This document shows, piece after piece, positions 49,865 through 52,548 of a stretch of DNA of 64,000 nucleotides (positions within the stretch are counted from its first letter, which is position 1; every line of letters begins with the position of its first letter). The stretch covers positions 141-64,140 of the forward strand of contig CAZNDH010000008.1 of NCBI GenBank assembly GCA_964571765.1, given 5' to 3'. The translations under genes and the position numbers were made by a program. Below the pieces are notes generated by a model that saw only the letters and a list, made by a program, of their open reading frames with translations, did not search any database and was not told the DNA's origin. The stretch is from an uncultured Acidimicrobiaceae bacterium (GTDB lineage Bacteria; Actinomycetota; Acidimicrobiia; Spongiisociales; ZC4RG35).

Positions 49865-50416
49865 ATGACCCCCGACCCGACACCGTGTCGGTACAACAAT
49901 GTCCCGATGCGCCCGGTGGTGGTCCAATTCCTCAAGTATCCCGATGCCCTCCATTGGGGGTTCGACGCGGTATACCTGGGAGAGGATGAGCACGGGTGGT
50001 GGGTAGGGCTGCCCGCCGGGTCGAGACGATGGAAGGGTGATCGCCCGGTGGCCCCTTCCGCCGAGGACGCGGTCCTGTGCGCACCTTGGGAGGGGTGGTG
50101 GCACCTCCACTACACCGGCGTCGGCCATGACACCTACACCCACTTCGTCGACATCGTGACCCAACCGCTGTGGCAGTCGGAAGGCCGCTACGAGATGGTC
50201 GACCTCGATCTCGACGTGGCCCTCACCCCTGAAGGGCGAGTGGTTGTCGAAGACGAGGACGAGTTCCTGATCCACCAGGTGAAGTACGGGTACACCCCGG
50301 AGATGATCGAGCGGGCGCTGGCCGAGACCACCCGGATCATCCGGGCCCTCGAGCACCGTGAAGAGCCGTTTTTCGCCGTGGCCGAAGGCTGGCTGCGCCG
50401 GCTCGGCACGAGCTAG
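49865..50416 (+). CDS. DUF402-domain protein
   Basis: HFVDIVTQP...YEMVDLDLDV...DEDEF is typical of DUF402. An alternative start ATG lies at 49907. Confidence 0.65.
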   Translation: MTPDPTPCRYNNVPMRPVVVQFLKYPDALHWGFDAVYLGEDEHGWWVGLPAGSRRWKGDRPVAPSAEDAVLCAPWEGWWHLHYTGVGHDTYTHFVDIVTQPLWQSEGRYEMVDLDLDVALTPEGRVVVEDEDEFLIHQVKYGYTPEMIERALAETTRIIRALEHREEPFFAVAEGWLRRLGTS

Positions 50417-50422
50417 CGAGGT

Positions 50423-50469
50423 GTGCATTTGCACGGAGGTGCGAAAAGCGCGACCTGGTGCATATGCAT
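50423..50469. repeat. Left repeat module: palindromes GTGCATTTGCAC and GTGCATATGCAT, 35 bp apart
   Basis: 50423-50439 (GTGCATTTGCACGGAGG) is the perfect reverse complement of 51424-51440. 50449-50469 (CGCGACCTGGTGCATATGCAT) is a 19/21 direct repeat of 51455-51475. Confidence 0.8.
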
Positions 50470-50548
50470 GCCCAGCTCGAGGGGGTTGAACCGGTTGGTG
50501 TGGTCGAGCAGAGTCGGGCGTGTGGGGGATCGTCGTCGGATTGACGCC

Positions 50549-51454
50549 ATGGCTTCACGGCAGTACGGGGTGTTCAACACCCGGCAGGCCCGCGAGGCCG
50601 GCTTCGACAAGAGCGCCGTCATGCGCCGGCTGGCGTCGGGGGAGTGGCTCAGGCTCGACCCCAGCGTGTACTGCGTCGCCTCCGCTCCTCCCAGATGGGA
50701 GCGGAGCCTGGCGGCTGCCGTCCTCAGCCGTAGTAACGCCCTGGTCACCGGTGGCTCGGCAGCGTGCCTTCACGGTCTACGCGGTTTCAGTCCCGGACGC
50801 CCGGTGATCATGGTGCCGATCGGCTCCAATGCCCGGTCGGAGATCGCCGACGTGGTTCAGGCGAAGAGGTTCGACTCGGTCGCCAGAACCCGTGTTAGTG
50901 GGTTCGAGGCGACCACGGTGGCCGAGACCCTGTTGGTGTTGGCCCGCACCCTCCCGGAAAGCAGAGTGGAGGCGGTCTTCGACGACGCCCTTCTCTCCAA
51001 GAAGATGAGGCTGAGCGAGTTGGAGGTGCCGCTGGCCAGAGAGGTGGCCAGCCGGGCAAAGGGTTTGTCGCTGATCCGTCGGCTCGTGGCCGAACGTCAT
51101 CCCCTGGCGCCCAGCCTTGACTCGACCTATCTGGAGGCAATGTTGGAGATGGTGCTGAGCGGGGCGAGCCTGCCGCCCTGGACCCGCGAGTACCGGTTCC
51201 GGATCCGCGGGGCATCACCGAGGGTCGACGTGTTCATCCCGGCGTGGTCACTGGTCGTCGAGGCCGACGGCCGCAACTGGCACGCCCGTCGCTCGGACTT
51301 CGAAAAGGACCGCAAGCGGGACAACAGCCTGGCCACTAAGGGCATACAGGTCTTACGGTTCACTTACGAGATGCTGGAGTCCGATCCAGGCGGGTGCCTC
51401 GACACCATCATCCGCACCGGTTCCCTCCGTGCAAATGCACTGGGGCTCGGATAA
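50549..51454 (+). CDS. AbiEi-like N-terminal wHTH domain fused to DUF559 (Vsr-like endonuclease fold) domain
   Basis: The N-terminus is GVFNTRQAREAGFDKSAVMRRLASGEWLRLDPSVY. The C-terminus is VDVFIPAWSLVVEADGRNWHARRSDFEKDRKRDNSLATKGIQVLRFTYEML. Confidence 0.75.
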   Translation: MASRQYGVFNTRQAREAGFDKSAVMRRLASGEWLRLDPSVYCVASAPPRWERSLAAAVLSRSNALVTGGSAACLHGLRGFSPGRPVIMVPIGSNARSEIADVVQAKRFDSVARTRVSGFEATTVAETLLVLARTLPESRVEAVFDDALLSKKMRLSELEVPLAREVASRAKGLSLIRRLVAERHPLAPSLDSTYLEAMLEMVLSGASLPPWTREYRFRIRGASPRVDVFIPAWSLVVEADGRNWHARRSDFEKDRKRDNSLATKGIQVLRFTYEMLESDPGGCLDTIIRTGSLRANALGLG

Positions 51455-51475
51455 CGCGACCAGGTGCAAATGCAT
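51424..51475. repeat. Right repeat module: palindromes GTGCAAATGCAC and GTGCAAATGCAT, 35 bp apart
   Basis: See the left module. Seen directly in sequence. Confidence 0.8.
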
Positions 51476-52548
51476 CAGCCGACGAGGAGCGGAATCTCAA
51501 CTTCGGCCCGGCTCAGACCGCCGTGGTAGCAGGCCAGCCGCTTGTCGAAGCCTTTGGGGATGACGGCGAGGTGGTCGGGGGGTAGCAAGACCTGTTCGCC
51601 GAGGCGAGACCGGGCGGCCGGCCCCGGCTCCGGTCCCACCAGGGTGGCGGGGTCGGCCAGATCGCCACCCGTCTCGGCGGCCAGATCCTCCATAACCTTC
51701 CGGTCACCCCACATCTGCACCCCGCGGGTGTCGCCGGCGAACCTGAGGCCGGAGTAGGCCGGGCTTCGCACCAGGTGCTTGTTGTGGTCGGGAAACGCAG
51801 CCAGACCGTGGTCGGCGGTCCCGACCAGGGCGACCCGAGCCGGCAGGTGGTTGGCGATCCCATCCCAGAGACGGGCCGCCTCGGCGATCGCCTCGGCGAA
51901 CTCCCCGGATTCGAGGCCGAAGACATGGCCGGCAAAGTCGACCTGGGGGAAGTAGGTGAAGAGAAGACGTCCCGGTTTGGCGAGCTGCAAGGTGGCTTGG
52001 GCCATCTCCGAGGTCTCCCACACCCCCTCGAAACGAGCCCCCCGATAGACCGCCTGAGACAGCGGGGACCCGGTGAAACCCCCAGGCTGGACGGTGATCG
52101 GCTCGACCCCGGCCCCCCGGAGCCGCTCCCACAGGTTGGGGCGGGGCAACAGCTCCGGATAGGGATACTCCACCGGGTCACCGGCCAGGTCGACCCACTT
52201 CAATGTGTTGACCACCCGTCCGGCCTCCTCCATCCAGGCGAGGTGGGCCACCAGACCATGGCGCGATGGCGCGGTGCCGGTGGCCACCGTGGCCAGTGAG
52301 ACGCTGGTCGTGGTGGGGAAGGGAGCGTCGATGATGGCCCGCATCGCCGATCGGAAGGTGGCCGCCGCGGGATGGCCCAGCTGGGCGACCCCGAGGCCGT
52401 CGAATAGAAGGAGAACGTAGGTGTCGGCCTCGGGAACCAGGTCCGGGTCGTGCAGCCGGGGTGAGGGCGCGCTCCCGGTGAGGCGGAACTCGATCTCGGC
52501 CACCAGGTTGACCAGGCCACTGCCGTCGTATGAGGGGCTCACCGCCAT
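51475..52548 (-). CDS. Alkaline-phosphatase-superfamily protein (type I phosphodiesterase/nucleotide pyrophosphatase-like)
   Basis: LLLFDGLG, FPTTTSVSLATVATG, DFAGHVFG and GTADHG match the metal-ligand pattern of this superfamily. Confidence 0.65.
   Translation of the reverse strand: MAVSPSYDGSGLVNLVAEIEFRLTGSAPSPRLHDPDLVPEADTYVLLLFDGLGVAQLGHPAAATFRSAMRAIIDAPFPTTTSVSLATVATGTAPSRHGLVAHLAWMEEAGRVVNTLKWVDLAGDPVEYPYPELLPRPNLWERLRGAGVEPITVQPGGFTGSPLSQAVYRGARFEGVWETSEMAQATLQLAKPGRLLFTYFPQVDFAGHVFGLESGEFAEAIAEAARLWDGIANHLPARVALVGTADHGLAAFPDHNKHLVRSPAYSGLRFAGDTRGVQMWGDRKVMEDLAAETGGDLADPATLVGPEPGPAARSRLGEQVLLPPDHLAVIPKGFDKRLACYHGGLSRAEVEIPLLVG

Follow-up and report, generated by a model that had tools for sequence, protein, structure and literature searches.

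IS200/IS605-family elements and their miniature derivatives (palindrome-associated transposable elements, PATEs) are short, carry hairpin-forming ends and produce no obvious target duplication. In Proteobacteria, the systems of repetitive extragenic palindromic (REP) sequences or REP doublets forming hairpins (REPINs) with REP-associated tyrosine transposases (RAYTs), also called REPtrons, consist of an enzyme gene flanked by a short palindromic repeat which is also scattered over extragenic sites (PMC3116915, PMC3337134). Inverted repeats are also used for autoregulation by AbiEi and Rv2827c (PMC7319586, PMC3985639), and the homodimeric EDxHD homing endonuclease I-Bth0305I has a footprint of ~60 bp and is most specific at its central pseudo-palindrome (PMC3239194). 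In this study, we analyzed a stretch of 64,000 nucleotides (C8:141-64140, hereafter the window) from the assembly of an uncultured Acidimicrobiaceae bacterium (G000; 2.17 Mb, 79 contigs, 66% G+C), in which a gene encoding an AbiEi-like DNA-binding half fused to a Vsr-like nuclease domain (DUF559) is framed by two 47-bp near-palindromic modules, module U upstream and module D downstream. This unit of module, gene and module is an accessory insert, the ends of which are marked by the modules. With modest confidence, we favor the reading that it is a cassette whose modules are the cognate sites of the encoded protein, in a partnership resembling that of REP and RAYT; it is apparently an undescribed variant of the theme of an enzyme combined with a cognate palindrome. 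In full-text literature searches for DUF559, neither a description of framing by cognate palindromes nor a link to dispersed repeats was found.

Like a REPtron, the locus has the repeat on both sides of the gene (U and D), the same repeat is dispersed over extragenic sites of G000, and each enzyme lineage has its own repeat family, with the repeats accompanying the gene. It differs in the enzyme, which combines an AbiEi-like winged helix-turn-helix (wHTH) part with a Vsr-like nuclease of the PD-(D/E)xK type instead of being an HUH Y1 transposase; Y1/RAYT proteins (PF01797) were absent from G000, G008, G011, G007 and G024, with controls positive in 6 of 14. Also, the module bears no 5′ GTAG or CGTC tetranucleotide as a tag and has, over 47 bp, two outer motifs at a fixed distance of N25. 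There are 10-30 copies here rather than hundreds, the host belongs to the Acidimicrobiia, and mobilization in trans is presumed.

With AbiEi (6Y8Q), the antitoxin of the type IV AbiE toxin-antitoxin/abortive-infection system, and with Rv2827c of Mycobacterium tuberculosis, the cassette protein shares a two-domain fold over the N-terminal ~190 residues, and the gene shares the paired inverted repeats beside its own promoter (PMC3985639, PMC7319586). In contrast to AbiE, the cassette is without the AbiEii toxin, and its protein carries a nuclease domain in addition to the AbiEi-like part; moreover, the repeat lies upstream of the -35 element and not over the promoter, and it recurs downstream of the gene and at nine other loci. 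The likeness to I-Bth0305I and Vsr (3R3P, 1VSR; PMC3239194) consists of the Vsr-like C-terminal fold with its conserved acidic/His motif (D227, E238, D240, H245). I-Bth0305I is also a multidomain protein with separate DNA-binding parts, and the ~60-bp footprint on its long pseudo-palindromic target fits the 47-bp module in size and symmetry. However, the cassette gene lies outside an intron or intein and has intact target-like flanks instead of a split target, no co-conversion as expected from a homing endonuclease is seen at these flanks, and, unlike Vsr, a stand-alone enzyme of ~150 amino acids paired with a cytosine methyltransferase, the protein is a fusion of 310 amino acids without a methyltransferase partner, its neighbors being DUF402 and a phosphodiesterase. 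The seamless presence or absence of the unit and the miniature gene-less derivatives in the same genome are reminiscent of IS200/IS605 elements, whereas each of the two cassette ends is a complete copy of one palindrome, both being in direct orientation, there is no conserved target tetranucleotide, and no TnpA or TnpB goes with the cassette (only the Y1 family was searched).

An accessory insert at the DUF402-phosphodiesterase junction

In 10 of the 11 congeners of G000, the orthologue of the DUF402 gene abuts the phosphodiesterase gene or lies close to it, and in nine the two genes converge directly, with neither the cassette gene nor a module between them. This empty-site comparison speaks for a selfish cassette of about 1 kb, which was one of two readings offered by an initial annotation of the window, the other being operators for the AbiEi-type domain. 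The stop codons at the empty sites mostly overlap in C-TAG-CC, a few genomes having spacers of up to ~120 bp. In G000, the extra DNA extends from just after the DUF402 stop codon (50417) to 51474/5. The unit which is present or absent is therefore module-gene-module with a length of 1,053-1,058 bp, and its right end coincides exactly with the final base of module D, which is also the first base of the TCA stop (TGA on the reverse strand) of the phosphodiesterase gene. At the left end, a 6-bp spacer (CGAGGT, 50417-50422) separates the DUF402 stop codon from module U and represents either the left junction or a remnant of the ancestral intergenic sequence; removal of the insert would join GGT to CAGCC and thereby restore the TCA stop of the phosphodiesterase gene.

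An orthologue of the cassette gene occupies the same site in only one congener, G008 (the Acidimicrobiia metagenome-assembled genome LejiaB_65_21), where it is 65% identical and flanked by degenerate U and D modules. In G033, which belongs to another genus, a 53%-identical relative is found at the same site, framed by a different palindrome of 45 bp. The empty junctions do not resemble the module; that of G011 reads ...CACTAGCCGGTGCC... In this genome (C146; L008/L053), the phosphodiesterase has a C-terminal extension of 3 residues (..LLIAGTG followed by the stop), encoded by CTAGCCGGTGCCGGC. The latter holds the 7 bases CCGGTGC, which are also those of the module arm beside the outer motif, either by chance or as the footprint of a cassette that was lost.

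In a tree of eight flanking proteins, G000 is the sister of the gene-less G011 (100% support) and G008 groups with the gene-less G009 (90%), and the nuclease tree has the topology ((G000,G008),G004,G033). The cassette must therefore have been gained or lost at this junction three times or more, a seamless site being left each time. Because the locus tree has a weakly supported backbone (49-87%; firm are (G000,G011) and a few other nodes), the three or more events are claimed without a direction. No co-conversion or homing tract was detected in the DUF402 and phosphodiesterase flanks, and those of G000 are closest to G011 up to both junctions. Metagenome relatives of the same clade (clade A, 48-65% identity) lie almost always at the 3′ end of the phosphodiesterase gene, which is home to at least 10 metagenome homologues of the cassette gene, and each clade-A subclade on the metagenome contigs has its own framing palindrome. 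The clade-A member in G004 is located at a different site. Altogether, clade A shows a long association with this site plus turnover.

The left flank of the insert is the DUF402 gene (49865-50416, forward strand, stop TAG at 50414-50416; Pfam DUF402, E 8.6e-8) and the right flank the gene of a type I phosphodiesterase/nucleotide pyrophosphatase (51475-52548, reverse strand; Pfam Phosphodiest, 2.7e-17). Thus, both neighbors had been named correctly from the start.

Each module family tracks its own gene clade

Four palindromes had been described around the gene, and all of them were recovered at their positions: GTGCATTTGCAC (50423-50434), GTGCATATGCAT (50458-50469), GTGCAAATGCAC (51429-51440) and GTGCAAATGCAT (51464-51475), with the 35-bp spacing of the 12-mers at both ends. 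They are the sole matches to GTGCAWWTGCAY in the window (0.00 expected from 100 dinucleotide-preserving shuffles), and TGCAWWTGCA has 4 matches there versus 0.03 expected. A scan of the whole assembly showed, however, that they are not four separate sites, since each pair of 12-mers forms the two outer ends of one 47-bp near-palindromic module, ATGCAWWTGCAC-N23-GTGCAWWTGCAT. Module U (GTGCATTTGCAC GGAGGTGCG AAAAG CGCGACCTGG TGCATATGCAT; 50423-50469, forward strand) is a member of an 11-copy genome family and has its outer TGCAWWTGCA 10-mers at 50424-50433 and 50459-50468. Module D (GTGCAAATGCAC TGGGGCTCG GATAA CGCGACCAGG TGCAAATGCAT; 51429-51475, forward strand) has the same orientation as U, which is that of the gene. 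The perfect inverted match of 17 nt between 50423-50439 and 51424-51440 was re-found, and the direct match of 19/21 between 50449-50469 and 51455-51475 can be read off the sequence. The interpretation of these matches as an inverted pair plus a direct pair was given up, as it arises from 12-mers which are each nearly palindromic, both modules being direct copies. The outer 12-mers of U and D form inverted termini with 11/12 matches. A recent duplication of one module into the other was rejected as well: U and D are identical at 36/47 positions, equal to the family pair mean of 36.6 ± 2.2 of 47, and are thus no more alike than any two family copies. As single-stranded DNA, module U folds into a good hairpin (-17.1 kcal/mol, z -4.8); module D is a weak hairpin (z -2.5 / -1.8), yet both of its outer 10-mers are intact.

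The genome search for further copies, which the initial annotation had proposed, revealed 11 modules on 8 contigs of G000 (family 1; consensus ATGCATTTGCACCAGGGTGCGGAAAACGCGACCTGGTGCAAATGCAT). They start at C2:36112, 37072 and 49826; C3:8897; C8:50563 and 51569 (window 50423 and 51429); C22:176; C31:458; C34:799; C40:125; and C44:83. All 11 copies are intergenic, several of them 3-7 bp past a stop codon, and their similarity ends at the module edges without extended homology of the flanks. The outer TGCAWWTGCA motifs are always 25 bp apart and almost invariant (~2 bits per position), the interior is partly conserved, and the module ends read (A/G/T)TGCAWWTGCA. Copy-specific compensatory pairing was not detected in family 1, neither for the inner arms (self 6.27 versus non-self 6.80, p 0.97) nor for the outer ones (p 0.74). 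Because of this, the detectable constraint is on sequence, which suits a double-stranded protein-binding site. A search against Rfam gave no family for the modules.

At two sites compared across the genus, solo modules are clean insertions of ~47 bp. Between rpoD and tRNA-Asn, a module is present in G000 and G008, whereas the spacer is clean and shorter in nine congeners; between thrB and bS22, only G000 has a module, located just upstream of a conserved promoter. At this second site, the region downstream of thrB (L164-L173) contains the promoter-like GGTTTGACCTAA...CACCATTG, which is strongly conserved across the genus and precedes a gene for a tiny basic protein, MGSLIKKRRKKMSKHKYRKRLKANRHKRKK (bS22-like), the solo module of G000 being immediately upstream of this element. 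The four intact solo copies of G008 lie at loci where G000 has none. In G011, one relic copy orthologous to C22:176 was found, in which one outer 10-mer is mutated. As G011 keeps this relic, family 1 predates the split of G000 and G011 and is largely gone from the gene-less genome, a point on module loss that is limited by the completeness of G011 of only 62%.

Further observations concern the surroundings of the modules. Two family-1 copies bracket an arginase/agmatinase-like accessory gene (C2:36112-37665), which has an orthologue only in G002 (85% identity), the other congeners having only a paralogue with 32-34% identity. Arginase-like gene, ferritin gene and tRNA-Gly follow each other in this order and form a small variable island punctuated by modules; the ferritin gene is unique to G000 in the genus and uninformative as a synteny anchor for the C2 modules. 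Four of 29 modules are located within 35-65 bp of a tRNA gene (C31:458, C40:125, C44:83, C7:3879), with only 23 tRNAs detected, and 5 of 11 family-1 copies are located within 800 bp of a contig start. The modules may favor tRNA neighborhoods or sit near assembly-breaking sequence.

For the distribution of gene and repeat, we used a relatives panel of 61 genomes and a broad panel of 185,579 species, each represented by a single genome. Nine matches to the full module pattern are present in G000, four in G008 and none in the 59 other relatives, with 0 in the controls. The 12-mer half-site GGTGCAAATGCA was counted 11 times in G000, six times in G008 and at most once elsewhere, which is the level of the reversed-pattern control. 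In the broad panel, only G008 is multi-copy for the module. The carriers of the 65%-identical orthologous gene are precisely these two genomes, G000 and G008. A genome-wide dispersed repeat unrelated to DUF559 had been named initially as an outcome speaking against a functional link: of this outcome, the dispersal applies (11 copies), but not the lack of a relation to the gene, since multiple copies are restricted to the two genomes having the orthologue. As a separate observation, two unrelated Streptomyces species (L071, L098) have a conserved TGCATATGCAC-N23-GTGCATATGCA with similar flanks once per genome and no DUF559 gene near it; possibly, this site serves a different regulator as operator.

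That a module family goes with one particular gene clade is also apparent from a second AbiEi-DUF559 paralogue in G000 with 44% identity (gene C5:76323-77210, locus C5:76158-77306), located between a response-regulator gene and a metY-like gene. A search for paralogues with the same flanks had been proposed initially; this gene is also framed by palindromes, 2+2 modules, but these form a family of their own (family 2, GTGTGCA-N25-TGCACAC). In G000, 18 modules belong to family 2, most of them arranged in tandem pairs that repeat every 52 bp. The gene-less congeners G001, G003 and G010 have an open reading frame (ORF) for a small membrane protein at the site of this paralogue. Only 7 of the 61 genomes (G000, G005, G007, G011, G024, G030 and G053) have at least 8 family-2 copies, and each of these seven carries a clade-B-type gene framed by a family-2 module. 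Both families have a common TGCA-N25-TGCA core and differ in the bases outside this core, and they are unmixed. For family 2, copy-specific stem complementarity was seen only in G024 (p 0.003), with negative results for G000, G030 and G053. In G007, this family also forms tandem arrays of 3 with a 50-60-bp period (C28:11004-11451, C41:13041-13181). Framing by palindromes on both sides is seen in G008 and in most homologues, and in L020-L036 and L127-L144, the palindromes around each homologue are specific to the lineage and have ends of the TGCA type. On one G008-like metagenome contig (L127:1115-1330), three D modules follow the gene in tandem with a 50-60-bp period.

The encoded protein and its promoter region

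The cassette gene extends from 50522 to 51454 on the forward strand and encodes 310 amino acids. A start at ATG 50549 had been assumed before; GTG 50522 is more likely from the conserved N-terminus MGDxRxID and the upstream elements. Module D contains the final 8 codons together with the TAA stop, and in G000 and G008 alike the 3′ end of the ORF is built into this module. Pfam matches to AbiEi_4 (1.5e-8) and DUF559 (4.8e-7) agree with the earlier identification as a DUF559/AbiEi-like gene. The AbiEi-like DNA-binding half (wHTH and AbiEi C-domain) comprises residues ~1-195 and the Vsr/DUF559-like nuclease domain residues ~215-300; PADLOC gave an AbiEi match with E 1.5e-23 over residues 1-169.

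An AlphaFold2 model of the protein (predicted local distance difference test, pLDDT, 90.7; predicted template modeling score, pTM, 0.81) was compared with known structures using Foldseek. Its N-terminal ~190 residues superpose on the Streptococcus agalactiae AbiEi 6Y8Q (E 6.5e-6, TM(target) 0.58-0.60), and its C-terminal ~100 residues on the catalytic domain of I-Bth0305I (3R3P, TM 0.75) as well as on Vsr (1VSR) and the DUF559 protein NGO0050 (3HRL). At the sequence level, similarity is marginal (E 0.8), and the score with TIGR00632 (Vsr) of 12.9 bits is below the cut-off of 97.9 for a stand-alone Vsr. Among 20 homologues, with identities as low as ~28%, the motif D227...E238-x-D240-G-R-x-x-H245...D254-R-x-R-x-N259 does not vary, and the nuclease site is therefore under selection. 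No AbiEii-like toxin gene is adjacent, as noted before, the downstream gene being the convergent phosphodiesterase gene; AbiEii (PF08843, DUF1814 nucleotidyltransferase) was also absent from the genomes G000, G008 and G011, with positive controls found. Therefore, the cassette is not an AbiE toxin-antitoxin pair.

Upstream of the gene, a putative promoter on the forward strand (50486-50514) consists of the -35 element TTGAAC (50486-50491), a 17-nt spacer and the -10-like element CAGAGT (50509-50514). There are 7 nt from the -10-like element to the start codon, which corresponds to the leaderless type. The arrangement TTGA(-35)-N17/18-GCAnnnT-N6/7-(A/G)TGGGGGA is kept in 14 clade-A loci; a promoter and terminator scan with an E. 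coli-type consensus gave no match, so that conservation is the basis of the promoter call. Between the end of module U and the conserved -35 element there are 16 bp, and an upstream module is located 7-16 bp before this element in G000, G008, L129, the C5 paralogue and L030. An Rfam match to Hammerhead_II inside the cassette ORF (50547-50609, reverse strand; 24.3 bits versus a gathering score of 37, E 0.03) is most likely due to chance.

Possible action on the modules and rival explanations

If the unit is a cassette with cognate sites, the module would be the DNA sequence recognized by the encoded protein. As a dimer, the protein would read the two outer TGCAWWTGCA motifs, 25 bp apart, with its AbiEi-like halves, and the Vsr-like catalytic domains would meet over the pseudo-palindromic center of the module. 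The upstream module may double as an autoregulatory operator, as in AbiEi; such a role is plausible for module U, located 16 bp upstream of the conserved -35 element, and it is compatible with the cassette reading. The protein would further act in trans on the modules and thereby spread or maintain solo copies across the genome, akin to the action of RAYT on REP/REPIN, with a PD-(D/E)xK-type nuclease in place of the HUH tyrosine transposase. More speculatively, nicking or cutting at the modules might drive copying as well as seamless gain and loss of modules and of the whole cassette. In decreasing order of support, the roles are those of the modules as insert ends, of the upstream operator, and of trans action on the modules. 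A wider proposal, which we consider possible rather than probable, is that AbiEi-DUF559 proteins might be the enzymes of an unrecognized class of chromosomal mobile or self-maintaining DNA in Actinobacteria. There, the Vsr-fold nuclease, guided by the wHTH, would recognize palindromes of 40-50 bp through their two outer motifs, cut at them and thus move or copy the gene-less modules and the 1-kb unit, with seamless insertion and excision. It would be a functional analogue of REPIN-RAYT based on a PD-(D/E)xK-type nuclease and without an HUH or DDE transposase.

Several points weigh against a cassette acting on its modules. To our knowledge, there is no precedent for a stand-alone PD-(D/E)xK transposase, and binding, cleavage and mobilization of the modules by the cassette protein are all steps that we infer. 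A hairpin or cruciform requirement for the family-1 modules would be unsupported judging from their sequences, no target-site duplication or junction rule is evident over the 11 copies, and the copy numbers of 11 (family 1) and 18 (family 2) are low compared with REPs. In G007 (29 family-2 modules) and G011 (12), the cognate gene contains an in-frame TGA. The occurrence of clade A at the phosphodiesterase 3′ end in many lineages looks like long residence more than frequent jumping, and a presence/absence polymorphism at the strain level was not found, all three other assemblies carrying the cassette.

Instead of being substrates, the modules might be regulatory sites only, which we regard as rather unlikely. 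The gene would then encode an autoregulated stand-alone nuclease, e.g. of a defense or addiction type, with module U as operator, module D as second operator, roadblock or terminator between the convergent genes, and the solo copies as a small regulon or decoys, nothing being mobilized by the protein. The complete AbiEi fold of the N-terminal half would suit such a regulator, given that AbiEi and Rv2827c autoregulate via inverted repeats (PMC7319586, PMC3985639), as would the upstream modules shortly before the conserved -35 element in the five loci given above, the solo copies just upstream of promoters or starts (thrB-bS22, rpoD-tRNA, C22:176) and the constraint on sequence instead of pairing. 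However, clean 47-bp insertions at unrelated loci in only two species, the downstream copy conserved throughout the family and the modules at the exact ends of the insert are left unexplained by regulation; furthermore, the invariant nuclease motif needs a substrate, and AbiEii is absent as a toxin partner.

In a different explanation, the modules are independent elements similar to REPs or miniature inverted-repeat transposable elements, moved by some other enzyme and landing preferentially beside one another and in short spacers near the gene, with the DUF559 gene as a bystander or hitch-hiker. The two copies around the unrelated arginase-like gene (C2:36112, 37072), the clustering near tRNA genes and the tandem arrays in relatives would be expected then, but not the strict genome-level pairing of each module family with its own gene clade, which is seen twice, nor the framing of every gene subclade on both sides by a different module. 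Since no RAYT/Y1 transposase was found in the five genomes searched either and the 3′ end of the ORF lies inside module D in G000 and G008, we give this explanation little credence. Even less probable appears a free-standing homing endonuclease gene which cuts the empty DUF402-phosphodiesterase junction and is copied by recombinational repair, the palindromes being by-products. Its attraction is that the catalytic domain is closest in fold to I-Bth0305I (TM 0.75), that the empty sites are clean, and that the same site is filled in G000, G008 and G033, which are not sister genomes, as well as in many lineages known from metagenomes. Against it stand the lack of a donor-like co-conversion tract, with the G000 flanks closest to the gene-less G011 up to the junctions, the empty junctions unlike the module, and the clade-A member of G004 at another site. 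Intact flanking target-like palindromes and solo copies elsewhere are not predicted by homing. Two other candidates were dropped: an ARG-box/ArgR operator for TGCAWWTGCA, as the module is restricted to two species and accompanies the DUF559 gene, and integron attC sites, as the cassettes are single and scattered and empty sites keep no module (IntI itself was not searched).

For the favored reading of a cassette with cognate modules, the locus offers a clean test case, with a precise empty-site panel and two distinct gene/module pairs in one small genome, and with a co-occurrence that holds at the genome level for the full module and the half-site alike. In Actinobacteria, the fusion proteins of DUF559 and AbiEi_4 form a very large family without an assigned function, and they often occur in multiple copies. 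If the protein acts on the modules, this family would represent a second, mechanistically independent solution to the REP/RAYT lifestyle and would account for how short palindromic repeats arose between the genes of high-GC Gram-positive bacteria. It would also provide nucleases with long, easily read and naturally diversified sites, the target of each being written beside its gene.

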